From a virus (taxonomy: Duplodnaviria; Heunggongvirae; Uroviricota; Caudoviricetes): DNA of 54,562 nt. The translations under genes were made by a program, and so were the position numbers. Below the pieces are notes generated by a model. That model had not been told where the DNA came from. It saw nothing but the letters and a program-made list of their open reading frames with translations, and searched no databases. The stretch lies in the IMG/VR virus record IMGVR_UViG_2568526722_000002, positions 1 to 54,562 of that record. One strand, written 5' to 3'. Below, in pieces: positions 10,778-46,742 of this stretch. The number at the start of each line of letters is the position of its first letter. Positions within the stretch are counted from its first letter, which is position 1.

Positions 10778-10896
10778 GCGGCAAAACGGGATGTGGGAAC
10801 AGGGGAAAATCAGATACCGGATATGGCTTTTTTTGCCAGTGGTGATGGATGGATGAAATTACCCAACGGTAAAATCCTGCAATATGGTCGAGGTGC
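10769..10896 (+). pseudogene. tail-fibre variable-tip fragment (both ends missing)
   Basis: ...[30 protein letters not shown] is typical of invertible tail-fibre C-terminal segments. The frame runs straight into yecD sequence at ~10897. Confidence 0.6.
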
Positions 10897-11120
10897 GGTT
10901 ACGCCGCCGAGGTATCGATACAATTGTGTTATGTGGGATCTCGACCAATATCGGTGTTGAATCCACCGCCCGCAATGCCTGGGAACTTGGCTTTAATCTG
11001 GTGATTGCCGAAGACGCCTGTAGTGCCGCCAGCGCCGAGCAACACAATAACAGCATTAATCATATCTACCCGCGCATCGCCCGTGTGCGTAGCGTGGAAG
11101 AGATCCTTCACGCGTTATGA
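10897..11120 (+). pseudogene. yecD: yecD (isochorismatase-family) 3' fragment
   Basis: [72 protein letters not shown] matches the C-terminus of E. coli YecD from memory. The N-terminal ~115 codons are absent. Confidence 0.75.
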
Positions 11121-11383: not shown

Positions 11384-11701
11384 CTAAACAACCGCGTTAT
11401 CTTGGCGAACATCGCAGATAGTAAACGTCACGACCCCGATGACAGTGACATCGTCCAGGGCCTCACCTTCAATCGCTTCGCCGTCTTCAGTAATCAGCGA
11501 ACGCCCTCTCAACGTGGCAAGTTCGGTCCCGCCGCCGTGCTGGATAAGAACCTGGCTTCCCTGCTTTGGCTTCAGGGAGATATCCAGCACAACATAACCG
11601 CCATCCCTTTCGAAAACGCGGGTGTTCGGCCCGACATTGCATATCGAGTTAACGGACAGTCGCTGCTCGACGTAGTCGGACGCCGGTGAAGGAAATCCCA
11701 T
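11384..11701 (-). CDS. UmuD'-like / S24 C-terminal-domain-like protein lacking the Ser-Lys dyad
   Basis: Starts MGFPSPASDYVEQRLSVN (compare UmuD' GFPSPAADYVEQRIDLN). The positions equivalent to SGDSM and the catalytic K read ERDGG and ELATL. Its ATG overlaps the upstream TAA (TAATG). Confidence 0.6.
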   Translation of the reverse strand: MGFPSPASDYVEQRLSVNSICNVGPNTRVFERDGGYVVLDISLKPKQGSQVLIQHGGGTELATLRGRSLITEDGEAIEGEALDDVTVIGVVTFTICDVRQDNAVV

Positions 11702-11940
11702 TACAGAACCCTCCCCATGTTGGCCATCATCCACAAACGGTTTTCGCTATGGTCGGTGGTTTTGTCGACAAAGTACGTCTGCTCTCTAGATATCCACGCA
11801 TTAGCCTCTGAGTCGGTAAAGTGCAGCCCACGCCGGCGCAGCGCTGACACAAAATCCTTTGTGTGCAGGTACTGGTAGCCTTTGGAGTTGCGCAATACCG
11901 ACTCGCGGAATGCCTGATTGATGTCTGACTGACGGTGCAT
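11701..11940 (-). CDS. 79-aa SOS-controlled protein (candidate antirepressor)
   Basis: MHRQSDINQAF..., with GGAGGCA SD. A LexA box lies 18 nt upstream of the start. Confidence 0.55.
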   Translation of the reverse strand: MHRQSDINQAFRESVLRNSKGYQYLHTKDFVSALRRRGLHFTDSEANAWISREQTYFVDKTTDHSENRLWMMANMGRVL

Positions 11941-11957
11941 GATCTGCCTCCGATTGA

Positions 11958-11977
11958 TACTGTTTTTATATACAGCA
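11958..11977. promoter_or_regulatory. LexA (SOS) box
   Basis: TACTGTTTTTATATACAGCA fits CTGT-N8-ACAG. Confidence 0.8.
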
Positions 11978-38414: not shown

Positions 38415-38442
38415 ATAAAAAAGCCCCGCACGATGGCGAGGC
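38415..38442 (-). terminator. intrinsic terminator (tR'-like, proximal to Q)
   Basis: Minus-strand read: GCCTCGC catcgt GCGGGGC followed by TTTTTTATTTGC (one G-U pair). Confidence 0.7.
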
Positions 38443-38508
38443 TCTTAATTCTTTGTCGACCTACGAAGCTATGGCGACGATATCAGATTTACATGAAATA
38501 TATGCGTT

Positions 38509-39942: not shown

Positions 39943-40152
39943 TCACCCCCAGACCTTTTGTCGAAAGGTTCTTGGTGTACGCGCCGGATGCTCGCATTCA
40001 GGCAATTTTGCGCTGATAGTCCAGGTGATGTTGTCGCGATTCAGGCTACGTTCTACCGTGGCGCCACGACGACGGTAACTGGCCACCAGCTCGTCGGCCT
40101 GATCGGTTGTGCATTCGTGATGGTGGAACCAGGAATATTTCATCGCCATCAC
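39943..40152 (-). CDS. hypothetical Nin-region protein
   Basis: 69-aa ORF tightly packed between its neighbours. Confidence 0.45.
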   Translation of the reverse strand: MMAMKYSWFHHHECTTDQADELVASYRRRGATVERSLNRDNITWTISAKLPECEHPARTPRTFRQKVWG

Positions 40153-40748
40153 CCCGCAAAGCTCATGAGCTGCGATGCGGCGTTTTCCGCTTCACGCTGG
40201 TCCTTGAATGCCCGGGACAATACCCAGCGCCACAGAACATCGAGCGCGGCTTTGTACAGCTGCTGGAACTCGGTTTCGTCCATGTTGGCAAAGGCAATGC
40301 TGCGGGGGTGTTTGCGAAGGGTGCCGTCGGGAAGCTGTATGGCGTCGTAGTGGCCAGACTCGATGATCACCCATGCACGATATGCGTCATAGGATTTGCA
40401 GATGCTGATACTACCGGCGCGCTTATCGGCGATGCGGTCCAGATATTGCTCAGCAGCATCCAGGAGTGCTGCTTCACTTCCCGCGAATGAGGCAAGGAAC
40501 TTGGCATAGCCGGTTACCAGCTTGCGTTCGTTGGAGGAGATTGCCCCGCCGGTGGGTTCCCAGTATTCGAAACCGAGATTGAGTAACGCGAAGAAACGAC
40601 GGTGAAAGGCCGGGTTGCGTACCTGCCGGAACTCAGCCACCAGTACGGAGCCGAGTTTGATTTTTGATTGCAGTAAATCACTGGTCTCCGGCGTAGCGGG
40701 GATCAGGATTCCTGAGGAATGCTTGATGAGTTGTAGTTCGTGCGCCAT
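40149..40748 (-). CDS. DUF1367-like Nin-region protein
   Basis: 199 aa. ...FRQVRNPAFHRRFFALLNLGFEYWEP... pattern. Confidence 0.6.
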   Translation of the reverse strand: MAHELQLIKHSSGILIPATPETSDLLQSKIKLGSVLVAEFRQVRNPAFHRRFFALLNLGFEYWEPTGGAISSNERKLVTGYAKFLASFAGSEAALLDAAEQYLDRIADKRAGSISICKSYDAYRAWVIIESGHYDAIQLPDGTLRKHPRSIAFANMDETEFQQLYKAALDVLWRWVLSRAFKDQREAENAASQLMSFAG

Positions 40749-40782
40749 GGTTTCTCTCCGTGGCGCAGTAGGTTACGGTTGT

Positions 40783-41031
40783 TCAGACCGTTGATTTCAT
40801 ATTATCAGAAGGTGGGGTTACCCGGTAGCCGAGACGGTGAATAAACTGCATAAAACCATTAGGAGTAAAGACCTCTTCATCATCCAGCAAAGGCCGCATA
40901 GAAACCATGCCATTGACGCGATAAATTAGATGCCTGCCCGATGAAGGAAAGCTAAACACCACGCAGCCGTCAGACCTTCTTACAATGTCATACCAGTTGT
41001 CTTCTGACGTTTGCAAAGCTGAATCACTCAC
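40783..41031 (-). CDS. 82-aa protein downstream of the dinI-like gene (candidate antirepressor)
   Basis: GTG start with GGGAGA SD. Same transcription unit as the SOS-box dinI-like gene. Confidence 0.5.
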   Translation of the reverse strand: MSDSALQTSEDNWYDIVRRSDGCVVFSFPSSGRHLIYRVNGMVSMRPLLDDEEVFTPNGFMQFIHRLGYRVTPPSDNMKSTV

Positions 41032-41148
41032 ATTTATGTTCTCCCTTCGAGCGACTAACAGACGCGATTAAAGATTGTCGGCAGCAGCATCAGAGGGTTA
41101 CGCAAATTGCGGTATTCTGAAAAATGCGCGCCAGCCTTAAGCGCAATT

Positions 41149-41382
41149 CTAATAAAACCAGTCGTCAGCGCTTTCCCAGGTATCCTGGAGGATTGATTCA
41201 ATTTTCTTTTTATCGTCCTTGTCACCACCAAAAACACTTAACCCATCGGCCCCGGCACGGCGGATTGTGAGCCTGCAATTGTCATAGTGATCATTCAGGC
41301 GCTTAAGCAGTTCTTTCTCCAATGCTGGTACTGCGCCTTTAGGAAGTTCTTTCATGCGATCAATGGTTAATTCAACTTTCAT
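41149..41382 (-). CDS. DinI-like protein
   Basis: MKVELTIDRMKELPKGAVPALEKELLKRL...KKKIESILQDTWESADDWFY parallels E. coli DinI (...RISEILQETWESADDWF). Confidence 0.85.
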   Translation of the reverse strand: MKVELTIDRMKELPKGAVPALEKELLKRLNDHYDNCRLTIRRAGADGLSVFGGDKDDKKKIESILQDTWESADDWFY

Positions 41383-41400
41383 AATGGCCCCCATTGCATG

Positions 41401-41420
41401 TACTGTGTTTTTATACAGTA
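41401..41420. promoter_or_regulatory. LexA (SOS) box
   Basis: TACTGTGTTTTTATACAGTA has perfect CTGT-N8-ACAG ends. It lies 19 nt upstream of the dinI-like start. Confidence 0.85.
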
Positions 41421-41525
41421 TACCTATGCGCGGAAATGATCAACGTTTTAAGAGCACAAATTGTTAATTTTCTGTCAGTAGTAAAAAAAGAAAACCCGCC
41501 GTAGCGGGTTGAATTAGCGATGTTT

Positions 41526-41600
41526 TATTACGCCGCTATTTGTTTCTGCTGACAAAGCTCCTGTAGGTTAGCCCTAACCAGCGCCTCAGCGAGCTGATGA
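41526..41600 (-). pseudogene. DNA methyltransferase 3'-end remnant, copy 1
   Basis: Minus frame reads ...MLSNHQLAEALVRANLQELCQQKQIAA-stop. About 85% identical over 62 bp to 42119-42183. Confidence 0.5.
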
Positions 41601-41779
41601 TTGGACAGCATTAACGCAATGGGTAATAGAAACCACAGAATGCACGAAATGGCGGTGGTATTCGCCATCTGTGACAGGTTGAATATTGCTCGAATTGTAT
41701 TGTTTGCACTTTAACGTTTCTGTTGTAGTGCCGGATGCATGCCACCGTATGTTCAGGACGATGGCATGCATATTATGGA

Positions 41780-42016
41780 TTACGATTTATCCATTCCCAG
41801 GGGATTAGGGTGAATTCCACTTACATGCCAGAACGCATGCTCTCTATTCAACTGATTTCCCTTTGGTATCAGGAAGCCATACGTCCCAGATTTAAAAGTG
41901 GCATGAGCGCAGATTAGACTTTCTCCTTCAAAGCTATACTCAGTCCCTTCAGGGATTAGAGAGTCAGTCTTGATCAGGTGAACAGTTCCGTTGATAGGGA
42001 TCATGTAATGGTGCAT
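41780..42016 (-). CDS. hypothetical 78-aa moron protein
   Basis: Strong GAGGAG SD. Lies between the two methylase-remnant repeats and is followed by a 10-bp-stem hairpin (ATGCATGCCA/TGGCATGCAT, 41735-41771). Confidence 0.55.
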   Translation of the reverse strand: MHHYMIPINGTVHLIKTDSLIPEGTEYSFEGESLICAHATFKSGTYGFLIPKGNQLNREHAFWHVSGIHPNPLGMDKS

Positions 42017-42120
42017 TTTAGGCTCCTCGTGTTGTGAAGAGCCTAATTATATCAGGTTTGAATCTACGTCATTGAAGTAGCAGGATTTGTTACACCATGT
42101 TCTGAAACTCGGACATTAAG

Positions 42121-42357: not shown

Positions 42358-43047
42358 TCACACCATCCCGTTCGACTTGTTGCGGTTGTACTTGGCCAGC
42401 AGCAGCTGGATCGGCGTCGGCCCTTGCTCGGCAGCTGGTGCGGCAATAGCCCGGCGTACCGGCGGCACTGGCTTACCCTCGGTGACGCGCCTTTCCCACA
42501 TGTCCAGCAGATCGCCTGCCTCGCGTGCCAGTTCACCATGCGTTAACTGGCGCTCGGTGCTGCGGTGGCGCAATTCTACGCAAATGTGGTACATGACCGG
42601 CTGCGACCATGGAAATTGCTCGCTGGAGATGAATTCGAACGAGCGGTTACGCCAGTCCCAGTATTCGGCGATCACCTGGTCAACGTTGACGCCCAGCGCG
42701 CCGCCGCTCTGCTTGCACCAGGCGACGAACTGGCCCGGCGACGGCAGGAATGGGCGCTCCTGGCGGCGGGCAATGCGCATGCCGGCATCGACCTGAGCCA
42801 TGGTGTGGATCCCGTTCTCCTGAAACGCCAGCAGCCACTGACGGCGGAATTCGTTCAGGTCTTCCTGGGTGCGGAAGTTCGCCATGCTGGCCGGGAACGC
42901 GGCGCGCAGCTCGTTGAACAGCTTGTTGAATACCTGCGCCACCTGCTCGACCGGCGCGCACTCCTGGTACTGCTCTGGCAGGTTATGGGCCATGCGGCTC
43001 ATCTGCTCGCGGTCGTGGTTACGCATCTGCTCTGCAAGAGATTTCAT
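42358..43047 (-). CDS. replication protein P-like (helicase loader)
   Basis: 229 aa with an ATGA overlap with the O-like gene. The sequence is lambda-P-like as I recall it. Confidence 0.75.
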   Translation of the reverse strand: MKSLAEQMRNHDREQMSRMAHNLPEQYQECAPVEQVAQVFNKLFNELRAAFPASMANFRTQEDLNEFRRQWLLAFQENGIHTMAQVDAGMRIARRQERPFLPSPGQFVAWCKQSGGALGVNVDQVIAEYWDWRNRSFEFISSEQFPWSQPVMYHICVELRHRSTERQLTHGELAREAGDLLDMWERRVTEGKPVPPVRRAIAAPAAEQGPTPIQLLLAKYNRNKSNGMV

Positions 43048-44587: not shown

Positions 44588-44806
44588 TTACTTTGGTAAA
44601 CCGTCACTTGGGTTTGGATAGAGATCAGGGCGCAGCTCGTGTGGAGTTACGCCGGTAGCCGCGTAGATTTGAAGGACCCGATCAGCAGGCACCACGCCCT
44701 GGTACCGGTTTTTCCAGCGGCTGACCGACATCGGCTTGATGCCCAGCATGGTTGCGAGATTTGTTGCAGTGCCAGCGGACTTAATGGCTTTCGTTAACCC
44801 GTTCAT
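44588..44806 (-). CDS. Cro-like HTH protein (YdaS/Cro family)
   Basis: Start at MNGLTKAIKSAGTATNLATMLGIKPMSVSRWK with GGAGA SD. Divergent from the repressor across the operators. Confidence 0.75.
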   Translation of the reverse strand: MNGLTKAIKSAGTATNLATMLGIKPMSVSRWKNRYQGVVPADRVLQIYAATGVTPHELRPDLYPNPSDGLPK

Positions 44807-44834
44807 CGTTGTCTCCGATTTGAATACAATCAAA

Positions 44835-44900
44835 TTAAGCCTGAGGCTTAATTTATTGTCAAGCCTGAGGCGAATTTTCAAGTTTAAGCAAAAGGCTTAT
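44835..44900. promoter_or_regulatory. right operator region: three 17-bp operators plus the PR/PRM region
   Basis: TTAAGCCTGAGGCTTAA (44835-44851, perfect palindrome), TCAAGCCTGAGGCGAAT (44859-44875) and TTAAGCAAAAGGCTTAT (44884-44900). Minus-strand TTGACA at 44862-44857. Confidence 0.75.
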
Positions 44901-44910
44901 TCTTCTAACC

Positions 44911-45297
44911 ATGAAAGAGAAAACCGTACTTAATCCGATACTTGTCGAACGCCTTTCAGAGCTGAACGGGCGCGGTATGACCAAATCCGATATGGCCAGG
45001 GTTGCTGGGGTAACCCCGCAGTCTGTGAACGGCTGGTTTAAAAAAGGCGTGATCAGCAAGAAATCAGCTCTCGCTGTCGCTGACGCAGCTGGCGTGTCTG
45101 TGCCTTGGTTACTCGGTGAGGATGTCGGCGAGAAGGACGGACTTAAGCCGGACGAACAGCGCCTGCTTGAGCTCTACCGCCAGCTGCCAGAAGAAGAGCA
45201 ACAGAACATGCTCCGCATCTTTTCGATACGTCTTAAGGAACTGGATGAGCTGTATGAGAAGTACATGAAGGGGCGGATTCGCTCGCAGGGGGACTGA
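44911..45297 (+). CDS. CI-like repressor, HTH_XRE, without an S24 autocleavage domain
   Basis: 128 aa. ...MTKSDMARVAGVTPQSVNGWFKKGVISKKSALAVADAAGVSVPWLL.... It has a short helical C-terminus and no Ala-Gly / Ser...Lys signature. Confidence 0.8.
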   Translation: MKEKTVLNPILVERLSELNGRGMTKSDMARVAGVTPQSVNGWFKKGVISKKSALAVADAAGVSVPWLLGEDVGEKDGLKPDEQRLLELYRQLPEEEQQNMLRIFSIRLKELDELYEKYMKGRIRSQGD

Positions 45298-45437: not shown

Positions 45438-46742
45438 ATGACAGCTGAGATTGTTGTAATAAATAATACTGGAATCGCCCTTGCTGCTGACTCTGCAGTC
45501 ACCACAGAGCATAATAGATTAGTAAAAATAAATAATAGTGCGGAAAAACTATTCGAACTATCTAAACACCATCCCGTGGGGATCATGATTTATAATAATG
45601 CGACACTGGGTGGCGCACCGTGGGAACTTATAATTAAATCCTATAGAAAACAATTGGGGAAAACTAGTTTCCCTACCATTAAAGAATATGTTAATGACTT
45701 TGTAAAATTCATCAATGGTAACTCAGACCTTATAACAAATGAAATGAGAGAGGCTTGCGTTATAAACCTTGTTGTTGATAACCTCAAAGGTTTGATGAGA
45801 TACATTAATGATAATAATGTAGTAAACTATTTAACAATGAACCCCGCCGTTGAACTCGACAATGTTATTTTTCAAAACATAGTTAAGCAAGCCTTTGATT
45901 TAGAGATAGGAATCTTAAGGAATAATCTCTTTTTCGAAGGGTTTGATACAGAAGAGTTTAATGATGCTTTAGCATATATACAAGATTTAATATCGCCATA
46001 CATTTCATCAATTATTGTTCTTGATAACTGTGAAAATATACAGCAAGAGCTTATGGAAAAAGTCATATTATATTCCACTTGTTTAATTTTCAAAGTCCAT
46101 GCTAGTCGTACATATTCAGGGATTGTTATAACAGGTTATGGAGAGGAAGAATATTACCCTTCCATTTGCACTCTTCATATCTACGGCATTTTTAAAAACA
46201 AATTGATGATCCATAATATTGATGATAAATCCCATAATGAGGTAACCAATATGGGGTTTGTTATACCATTTGCTCAAGAAGATGAAGTAGTAACTTTCAT
46301 TGATGGGTGCAACCCTAACATCATTAATTTTAACAGAACTCTTACAGAGGAAGTTTTTGATCGGCTTAATCATTATGTTTCTAGCAATATTTTCCCTGCA
46401 ATGAACAATGGAGTACTAGCCAATCACTTCTCCAGTGAAATTGAGGAACTCAAAAACGTACTTTTACAAGATCACGATACTAAACTTGAAAGCTATATTG
46501 TTAATAACCATACAAATAAAATGATATCGATGTTGCAATCACTTGGGAAGGCAGATCTTGCGTATATGGCCGAATCATTAGTGAACATCACTGCATTCAA
46601 AAGAAAAGTATCACATGATTATGAAACTGTCGGTGGGCCTGTTGATGTCGCTGTGATATCAAAAGTTGATGGATTTGTTTGGGTAAATCGTAAACACTAC
46701 TTCCCTAAAGAGCTAAACTCTAACTACTTTAATCGTCAATAA
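45438..46742 (+). CDS. proteasome-beta/HslV-like Ntn-hydrolase homologue with large insertions (434 aa)
   Basis: N-terminus M-TAEIVVINNTGIALAADSAVT...SAEKLFEL and C-terminus ETVGGPVDVAVISKVDGFVWV mirror 20S beta TTTVGI..AVIMATERRVT...GKKLFQI and [21 protein letters not shown]. The gene is AT-rich. Confidence 0.6.
   Translation: MTAEIVVINNTGIALAADSAVTTEHNRLVKINNSAEKLFELSKHHPVGIMIYNNATLGGAPWELIIKSYRKQLGKTSFPTIKEYVNDFVKFINGNSDLITNEMREACVINLVVDNLKGLMRYINDNNVVNYLTMNPAVELDNVIFQNIVKQAFDLEIGILRNNLFFEGFDTEEFNDALAYIQDLISPYISSIIVLDNCENIQQELMEKVILYSTCLIFKVHASRTYSGIVITGYGEEEYYPSICTLHIYGIFKNKLMIHNIDDKSHNEVTNMGFVIPFAQEDEVVTFIDGCNPNIINFNRTLTEEVFDRLNHYVSSNIFPAMNNGVLANHFSSEIEELKNVLLQDHDTKLESYIVNNHTNKMISMLQSLGKADLAYMAESLVNITAFKRKVSHDYETVGGPVDVAVISKVDGFVWVNRKHYFPKELNSNYFNRQ

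Follow-up and report, generated by a model that had tools for sequence, protein, structure and literature searches.

The CI repressor of phage lambda is cleaved through its S24 domain. The repressors of the Gifsy prophages of Salmonella are not cleaved upon induction, and induction is blocked by lexA3 (Lemire, Figueroa-Bossi and Bossi 2011, PMC3121763; below, Lemire 2011). We analysed a 54,562-nucleotide (nt) stretch of phage DNA from an Escherichia coli prophage (IMG/VR record IMGVR_UViG_2568526722_000002, positions 1 to 54,562; below, the window), in which a LexA-type SOS box, a dinI homologue and an open reading frame (ORF) of 82 aa lie at positions 40,783 to 41,420. An initial annotation of this DNA had pointed to the Gifsy arrangement of dinI and antirepressor under LexA control, correctly as Lemire 2011 states, and had proposed the 82-aa ORF as a candidate antirepressor. 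Our analysis supports this proposal by an identity of 93% to the Gifsy-1 protein GfoA and by a shared architecture. With a probability of about 0.86, this segment serves as induction module in a lambdoid E. coli prophage that is related to phage mEp237, and represents the same system as PdinI-gfoA-irsA of Gifsy-1 and Gifsy-3. The system is already known and not novel: a close orthologue was characterised genetically and biochemically in 2011 and re-examined in 2017 and 2025.

In the Gifsy prophages, the LexA-regulated operon has the order dinI, antirepressor, irsA, and the smallest element that suffices for induction is a short ORF between dinI and irsA whose start codon is non-canonical (PMC3121763). 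The LexA box next to the dinI homologue is required; when PBAD is put in its place, induction becomes arabinose-dependent. GftA, GfoA and GfhA bind their repressors or pull them down, and operator DNA is freed of GtgR by GftA (PMC3121763). Other LexA-controlled antirepressors are Tum of coliphage 186 and AntC of N15 (discussed in Lemire 2011, PMC3121763). In E. coli K-12, the Rem protein of the cryptic prophage Qin relieves repression by DicA; by the authors' account, the inducing signal of rem is unknown (Ragunathan and Vanderpool, bioRxiv 10.1101/2023.04.14.536235).

Applied to the window, the Gifsy scheme would work as follows. In an undamaged cell, LexA would occupy the box at 41401-41420, which overlaps the −10 hexamer, and keep the unit silent, and the terminator upstream would block read-in from the replication genes. 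DNA damage would result in RecA-stimulated cleavage of LexA and in a single transcript carrying dinI, the gene of the 82-aa antirepressor and irsA/DUF1367. The antirepressor would then bind the short, non-cleavable repressor of 128 aa and cause its release from the operators, starting the lytic programme. In the window, the basis of this scheme is formed by the sequence features, the conserved architecture and the close relationship of the two proteins to GfoA and GfoR. From the experiments with the Salmonella orthologues, we take over the dependence on LexA, co-transcription, binding between the proteins and repressor release.

The dinI-antirepressor unit and its Gifsy counterparts

The following features are relevant for the comparison. 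Coordinates are those of the whole window, and the SOS unit is located entirely on the minus strand.

41493..41510, minus strand: intrinsic terminator immediately upstream of the promoter, AACCCGC-TACG-GCGGGTT and then a T-run
41438..41443, minus strand: candidate −35 hexamer TTGATC
41417..41422, minus strand: candidate −10 hexamer TATACT, its last four bases within the LexA box
41401-41420: LexA (SOS) box, a 20-nt palindrome, plus-strand reading TACTGTGTTTTTATACAGTA, minus-strand reading TACTGTATAAAAACACAGTA
41149..41382, minus strand: dinI homologue, 77 aa from ATG 41382, alternative ATG 41394
41032..41148, minus strand: spacer between dinI (stop 41149) and the antirepressor gene (start 41031), exactly 117 nt
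41145-41127, minus strand: weak terminator-like hairpin directly after the dinI stop, then five T's (hairpin and T's together, 41145-41120)
40783..41031, minus strand: GfoA-type antirepressor gene of 82 codons, GTG 41031, stop 40783
40149..40748, minus strand: irsA homologue (DUF1367), third gene, starting 34 nt after the antirepressor stop
44911..45297, plus strand: lysogenic repressor of the GfoR/GfhR/DicA class, 128 aa, presumed target of the antirepressor

The close relationship to Gifsy-1 became apparent when the GfoA and GfoR sequences were rebuilt from the cloning primers of Lemire et al. 2011 (PMC3121763). The annealing part of the forward gfoA primer (primers pp866/pp867), GTAATTCAGCTTTGCAA, encodes (M)SNSALQ, and the window ORF begins with MSDSALQ. 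In a search of viral contigs, the forward primer plus the three preceding bases (TGA) matched 57 Salmonella-type prophage contigs, where the ORF comprises 82 codons, with TTG as the usual start. Of these 57, 46 had an exact match to the annealing part (20 nt) of the reverse primer pp867. The full primer-pair pattern including the 'ATA' tail of pp867 had no match in the viral contigs; the last bases of this primer are a non-annealing tail. Two contigs (L011 and L040) contained exact matches to both gfoR primers, flanking a 131-aa ORF approximately 4.4 kb from the gfoA ORF.

In the comparison with GfoA-type sequences that the initial annotation had suggested, the window ORF was identical to the rebuilt GfoA at 76 of 82 positions (93%). 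Since the reverse gfoA primer stops at the D76 codon, the published tagged GfoA apparently lacks the last six residues, which are variable in the family and have low confidence in an AlphaFold2 model of the window ORF. The GTG start and the Shine-Dalgarno sequence GGGAGA (41045-41040, 8 nt before GTG 41031) that had been read from the DNA were both borne out. By profile, the ORF belongs to PHROG 340 (E 4.3e-20), the same family as GfoA and E. coli K-12 Rem (Rem E 4.4e-21). A sequence search of the PDB found nothing, and PADLOC matched neither the ORF nor the genes next to it. In a set of 1.8 billion proteins, this small family comprised 39 representative clusters (E <= 1e-3). Homologues with 36-69% identity occur in Klebsiella phage ST974-OXA48phi18.2, E. 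coli phage PHB10, Citrobacter phage Chris1, Salmonella phage SPN3UB and Aeromonas phage pAEv1818; in all five of these divergent phages, a LexA-type box precedes dinI by ~18-19 nt and the ORF homologue directly follows dinI. Binding to the cognate repressor, operator release and induction by expression of the ORF are known from the Salmonella proteins and Rem, and by analogy would be expected of the window ORF.

The SOS box has two perfect 6-nt arms (TACTGT-N8-ACAGTA), as initially described; its end is 18 nt away from the dinI start, however, and not 19 nt as first counted. With at most one mismatch, TACTGT-N8-ACAGTA occurs twice in the window (0.05 expected), and the core CTGT-N8-ACAG occurs three times (0.49 expected). 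The distance from the box to the start of the antirepressor ORF is 387 nt (41418 to 41031). In GfoA-type loci with sufficient upstream sequence, this distance is 386-403 nt (53 of 53 loci; 387 nt in approximately 45), and all 53 have a CTGT-N8-ACAG box followed by dinI, with invariant arms and a variable box centre. By its sequence match and the conservation of the arms, the window unit is a candidate member of the LexA regulon.

A TTGA(T/A)(C/T) hexamer is found at the position equivalent to the candidate −35 element in all related loci, and the window carries the common TATACT allele of the −10 hexamer. The layout of terminator, −35 hexamer, 15-nt spacer, TATACT and box is shared with the related loci, and the placement of the box, overlapping TATACT and directly before dinI, is like that in Gifsy-2 and at least 40 related loci. 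The upstream terminator (41510-41493) is strong (−12.8 kcal/mol, z −4.42, none of 200 shuffles equally stable) and insulates the SOS unit from transcription of the replication genes. Its hairpin is also present in most related loci, and a terminator-like palindrome precedes every Gifsy LexA box (Lemire 2011, PMC3121763).

A single nucleotide polymorphism (SNP) in the −10 hexamer of PdinI-gfoA makes Gifsy-1 of strain D23580 non-inducible (Owen et al. 2017, PMC5322425). Variant −10 hexamers (CATACT, TGTACT, TATGCT) were seen at four GfoA-type loci in Salmonella prophage contigs of IMG/VR (L041, L042, L057 and L058). By analogy with the D23580 promoter SNP, these may be non-inducible alleles.

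The gene following the box is a clear DinI homologue, in agreement with the initial annotation (Pfam PF06183, E 4.3e-26; 91.5 bits compared with a gathering cut-off of 24.2; profile positions 1-63 of 63). Its product belongs to PHROG 189 and is named 'DinI family protein' in RefSeq. The score does not reach the equivalog cut-off that NCBIfam sets for chromosomal DinI (91 vs 111 bits), and the gene is therefore a phage paralogue. ATG 41382, which is preceded by GGGGG, is the likelier start and ATG 41394 the less likely one. ATG 41382 is the start given by RefSeq for an E. coli genome with 100% identity to the window from 40100 to 42100, and this codon aligns with the dinI start of Gifsy-2. The third gene matches DUF1367 in Pfam (E 2.2e-91) and aligns with STM1020 of Gifsy-2; gp50 of mEp237 is annotated as similar to STM1020. 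No terminator was predicted between the antirepressor ORF and irsA.

In its order of elements, the window is like Gifsy-1 dinI-gfoA-irsA: terminator, promoter overlapped by the LexA box, dinI, a spacer of ~117 nt, an 82-aa ORF with a non-AUG start and irsA/DUF1367. As in Gifsy-1, the unit is situated outside the immunity region and ~0.9 kb downstream of the replication genes; in the window, the P-like gene ends at 42358 and the LexA box lies 0.94 kb further on. The two prophages differ in host (E. coli for the window) and in the mEp237-like backbone with a contractile tail, and the ORF starts with GTG instead of the TTG of GfoA. The N-terminal helix-turn-helix (HTH) region of the window repressor also differs from that of GfoR, so that immunity is presumably different.

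Gifsy-2 dinI-gftA with its repressor GtgR has an identical layout and the same arrangement of LexA box and promoter, and the 5' end of its irsA is ~90% identical to that of the window. However, GftA has no significant pairwise similarity to the window ORF (BLASTP E 0.98). The match of the window ORF to PHROG 4847, which contains GftA and FsoA, was at E 0.054, and hhalign gave a weak, co-linear alignment over 50 columns (probability 17.6%). Lemire 2011 aligns GftA/FsoA and the GfoA-type antirepressors as distant relatives (PMC3121763). At best, GftA would be a very distant relative of the window ORF.

Rem is a member of PHROG 340 like the window ORF, and its target DicA is homologous to the window repressor, but the pairwise similarity of the two proteins by BLASTP is not significant, and they are linked by the family profile only. 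No dinI is annotated beside rem, which has hokD and relBE on its upstream side. With Tum and AntC, the window shares the principle that LexA represses an antirepressor which inactivates a non-cleavable repressor. Tum has a DinI-like half and thus the same association of antirepressor and DinI as the window; there, however, the parts form a fusion or have their order reversed (PMC3121763).

Like induction of the lambda CI type, the window unit couples prophage induction to the RecA/LexA SOS signal. Unlike CI, the window repressor has no S24 domain, so that the signal must pass through LexA and the antirepressor, which in principle is reversible. Induction is accordingly predicted to depend on LexA and the antirepressor and, in principle, to be reversible if the damage is repaired. 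Cross-talk with other prophages carrying GfoR-like repressors is also predicted. A gene that is called 'hypothetical protein' in every database can now be annotated as the switch that probably controls induction of an E. coli prophage, and the segment is carried by ~2% of complete E. coli genomes and by the viable phage mEp237. No new principle is involved: the mechanism and the dinI-irsA region's conservation among Escherichia prophages were described in 2011 (PMC3121763).

The repressor and its presumed pairing with the antirepressor

The immunity region (44.0-45.3 kb) contains the short repressor, a YdaS/Cro-like gene and a YdaT-like gene. The initial annotation had called the repressor non-cleavable-looking, which agrees with our finding of an HTH_3 domain only; an S24 peptidase domain was not found. 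In this it is like the short non-cleavable repressors of the GfoR/GfhR/GtgR/DicA class, which have a length of ~130-150 aa and an HTH similar to the N-terminal domain of CI. The repressor is identical to the rebuilt GfoR at 82 of 131 positions (63%) and to DicA at 29% (E 4e-12), including a C-terminal LLEL..LPE.EQ motif. The gene divergent from it is the following.

44588..44881, minus strand: Cro-like (YdaS/P22_Cro) gene, divergent from the repressor gene, ~3.2 kb from the SOS unit

This gene matches YdaS_toxin (E 3.2e-14) and P22_Cro (E 2.6e-06) in Pfam, and its true start is probably internal to the ORF 44588-44881.

Several points weigh against the segment being the induction module of this prophage. 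LexA binding, co-transcription and repressor binding would all apply here by homology. The candidate −35 and −10 hexamers are separated by 15 nt, which is unusual, and a consensus promoter scan reported no promoter at this site because it covered spacings of 16-18 nt. For the ORF, AlphaFold2 gave a fold of four beta-strands and a C-terminal helix with a moderate pLDDT (predicted local distance difference test) of 67.6, and Foldseek against the PDB returned no informative match (best E 1.5) and hence no structural support for a binding mode. A hairpin with five T's follows dinI. Finally, the identity of the repressor to GfoR is no more than 63%, and shuffling of modules occurs: E. coli L004 (NZ_AP045816.1), which is identical to the window over 40100-42100, has a different repressor allele (60% identical). 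This indicates that the antirepressor module and the immunity module are exchanged independently, and a cognate pairing of antirepressor and repressor is therefore not guaranteed.

Such shuffling raises the question of whether the window encodes a true LexA-controlled antirepressor of the GfoA family that is mismatched to its own repressor and acts in trans only or is without a role here. Both specific and promiscuous antirepressors exist (Lemire 2011, PMC3121763), and the same dinI-ORF segment is found beside repressors of 60-83% identity. One contig (L041) even pairs a GfoA-type ORF with a repressor that is only 36% identical to that of the window. Nevertheless, we consider a mismatch improbable. 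Although GfoR and GfhR share only 66% similarity and differ in operator specificity, GfoA inactivates either of them, and GtgR is described as insensitive to GfoA (Lemire 2011, PMC3121763). Compared with the window repressor, the repressors encoded beside GfoA-type genes are 47-83% identical in the N-terminal HTH half and 76-94% identical in the C-terminal segment 73-122, whereas the insensitive GtgR reaches 30% in this segment (overall range, 21-30%). ORF and repressor homologues also co-occur: 11 of 13 distinct phages with a homologue of the ORF were also among the tblastn hits of the window repressor. Moreover, no S24 domain or other induction route is visible in the window.

The simplest reading of this pattern would be a conserved C-terminal docking surface on the repressor. 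With such a surface, the antirepressor of the window likely acts on the window's own repressor, probably via the conserved C-terminal helical segment.

Matches of the repressor to polyubiquitin entries in the PDB were treated as spurious; they consist of a 23-residue stretch aligned to ubiquitin repeats, with no single stretch past the threshold. Directly downstream of the repressor gene and on the same strand is an ORF of 434 aa (45438-46742, plus strand) with a G+C content of 0.33, compared with ~0.5 in the surrounding DNA. The ORF falls into PHROG 5990 (function unknown), and neither Pfam nor PADLOC gave a match. Its position is that of exclusion or defence cargo expressed in the lysogen, such as rexAB.

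Probable transcription through the dinI-antirepressor spacer

The gap between dinI and the ORF, initially given as ~117 nt, is exactly this long. An active terminator at this place had been named in the initial annotation as a finding that would refute its proposal. A terminator-like hairpin is present, but it is weak, and its Gifsy copies are read through. If the hairpin and T-run were an efficient terminator, the LexA promoter would express DinI only, and the ORF would be silent or expressed from elsewhere. The near-invariance of stem and T-run over the related loci, with variation mainly in the loop, could be cited for this idea. The hairpin (41145-41127, followed by TTTTT), however, has a stem of 5-6 bp and a folding energy of −8.6 kcal/mol (z −0.34), a value equalled by 68 of 200 shuffles, and only five T's follow. 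It is also present in Gifsy-2 and in Gifsy-1-type loci. In Gifsy-2, PBAD placed upstream of dinI drives induction and removal of the LexA box abolishes the response to mitomycin C (Lemire 2011, PMC3121763), and mCherry put in the place of gfoA in Gifsy-1 responds to ciprofloxacin (PMC12626290). A scan of the spacer for a promoter-like site found none. Since the hairpin is weak, shared with Gifsy-2 and passed by transcription in Gifsy-2 and Gifsy-1, we regard it as at most a partial terminator, and efficient termination as very improbable.

The spacer is more conserved than the flanking genes. Its mean identity to the related loci is 89% (dinI, 70%), and compared with Gifsy-2 it is 81% identical (dinI, 65%; ORF, 40%). 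This conservation persists even across the replacement of gfoA by gftA. More distant phages have unrelated spacers of 38-106 nt. The spacer had no match in Rfam and no stable overall fold (z +0.54 compared with shuffles). Either a joint at which modules recombine or an element that tunes expression may be present here. An 11-codon mini-ORF (ATG CTG CTG CCG ...), read by eye in the spacer, was rejected as coding; it is without a Shine-Dalgarno sequence and its stop is not conserved.

Combining the spacer with the repressor comparison leads to a broader proposal, which we put forward tentatively and hold to be possible at best. According to this, the antirepressor would dock on the C-terminal helical segment of the repressor (~73-122, DGLKPDEQRLLELYRQLPEEEQ...RLKELDELYEKYM) and not on the variable HTH, so that one allele could induce many heteroimmune prophages of E. 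coli and Salmonella. At the same time, the conserved 117-nt spacer with its leaky hairpin and the non-AUG start would act as a threshold filter, with DinI produced at mild SOS and the antirepressor only under sustained damage.

That the 82 codons are open by chance and the unit is only an SOS-regulated dinI has a negligible probability: the ORF is short, has a GTG start, belongs to no family of Pfam or NCBIfam and its homologues are all 'hypothetical protein', but they form 37 protein clusters with 53-96% identity and 16 invariant residues, its position after dinI is conserved out to Aeromonas, and the 93%-identical GfoA was epitope-tagged and detected, and a frameshift in GftA abolished activity (PMC3121763).

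Genomic setting and a second LexA-controlled unit

The 2-kb segment around the SOS unit is 97% identical to the lambdoid coliphage mEp237 and 82-84% identical to the Salmonella phages SEN34 and SW-37, and Gifsy-2 gave a partial match of 81.5%. It is present in 112 of 5426 complete E. coli genomes. E. coli Z22-6 is not colinear with the left part of the window. The flanks consist of lambdoid early and nin genes, with O- and P-like replication genes upstream and NinG, YlcG and Q downstream.

The initial annotation had counted two SOS inputs, the other being located at 11384-11977. A second LexA-controlled unit is indeed found there, but nothing links it to induction or to the lysis-lysogeny switch.

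11958-11977: second good LexA box, TACTGTTTTTATATACAGCA, of the unit 11384-11977 on the minus strand

The first gene of this unit encodes a 79-aa protein (PHROG 3893, function unknown), and the second is an overlapping UmuD-like ORF of ~105 aa (PHROG 3469) that begins with MGFPSPASDY. The UmuD-like protein had no Pfam Peptidase_S24 domain at E <= 0.01. The unit is located beyond the tail-fibre genes at the distal prophage end and looks like an SOS-controlled accessory gene pair rather than an induction switch. The third CTGT-N8-ACAG core of the window (46028-46043) falls within the AT-rich ORF of 434 aa, and its flanks (AA/CA) are poor; for these reasons it is probably a chance occurrence and was rejected as a LexA site.

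Two further observations concern other parts of the prophage. A match to the Rfam family isrJ, an island-encoded Hfq-binding small RNA of Salmonella, was found at 38420-38493 on the minus strand (68.7 bits compared with a gathering cut-off of 37; E 1.3e-10). This places it between the Q antiterminator gene, which it closely follows, and the holin, a position that we take to be expected of a lambdoid late-promoter leader transcript. Near the distal prophage end, a 78-aa fragment (10884-11120, plus strand) comprises only the C-terminal part of an isochorismatase domain (Pfam 2e-21, positions 107-175 of 175) and is probably a truncated gene.

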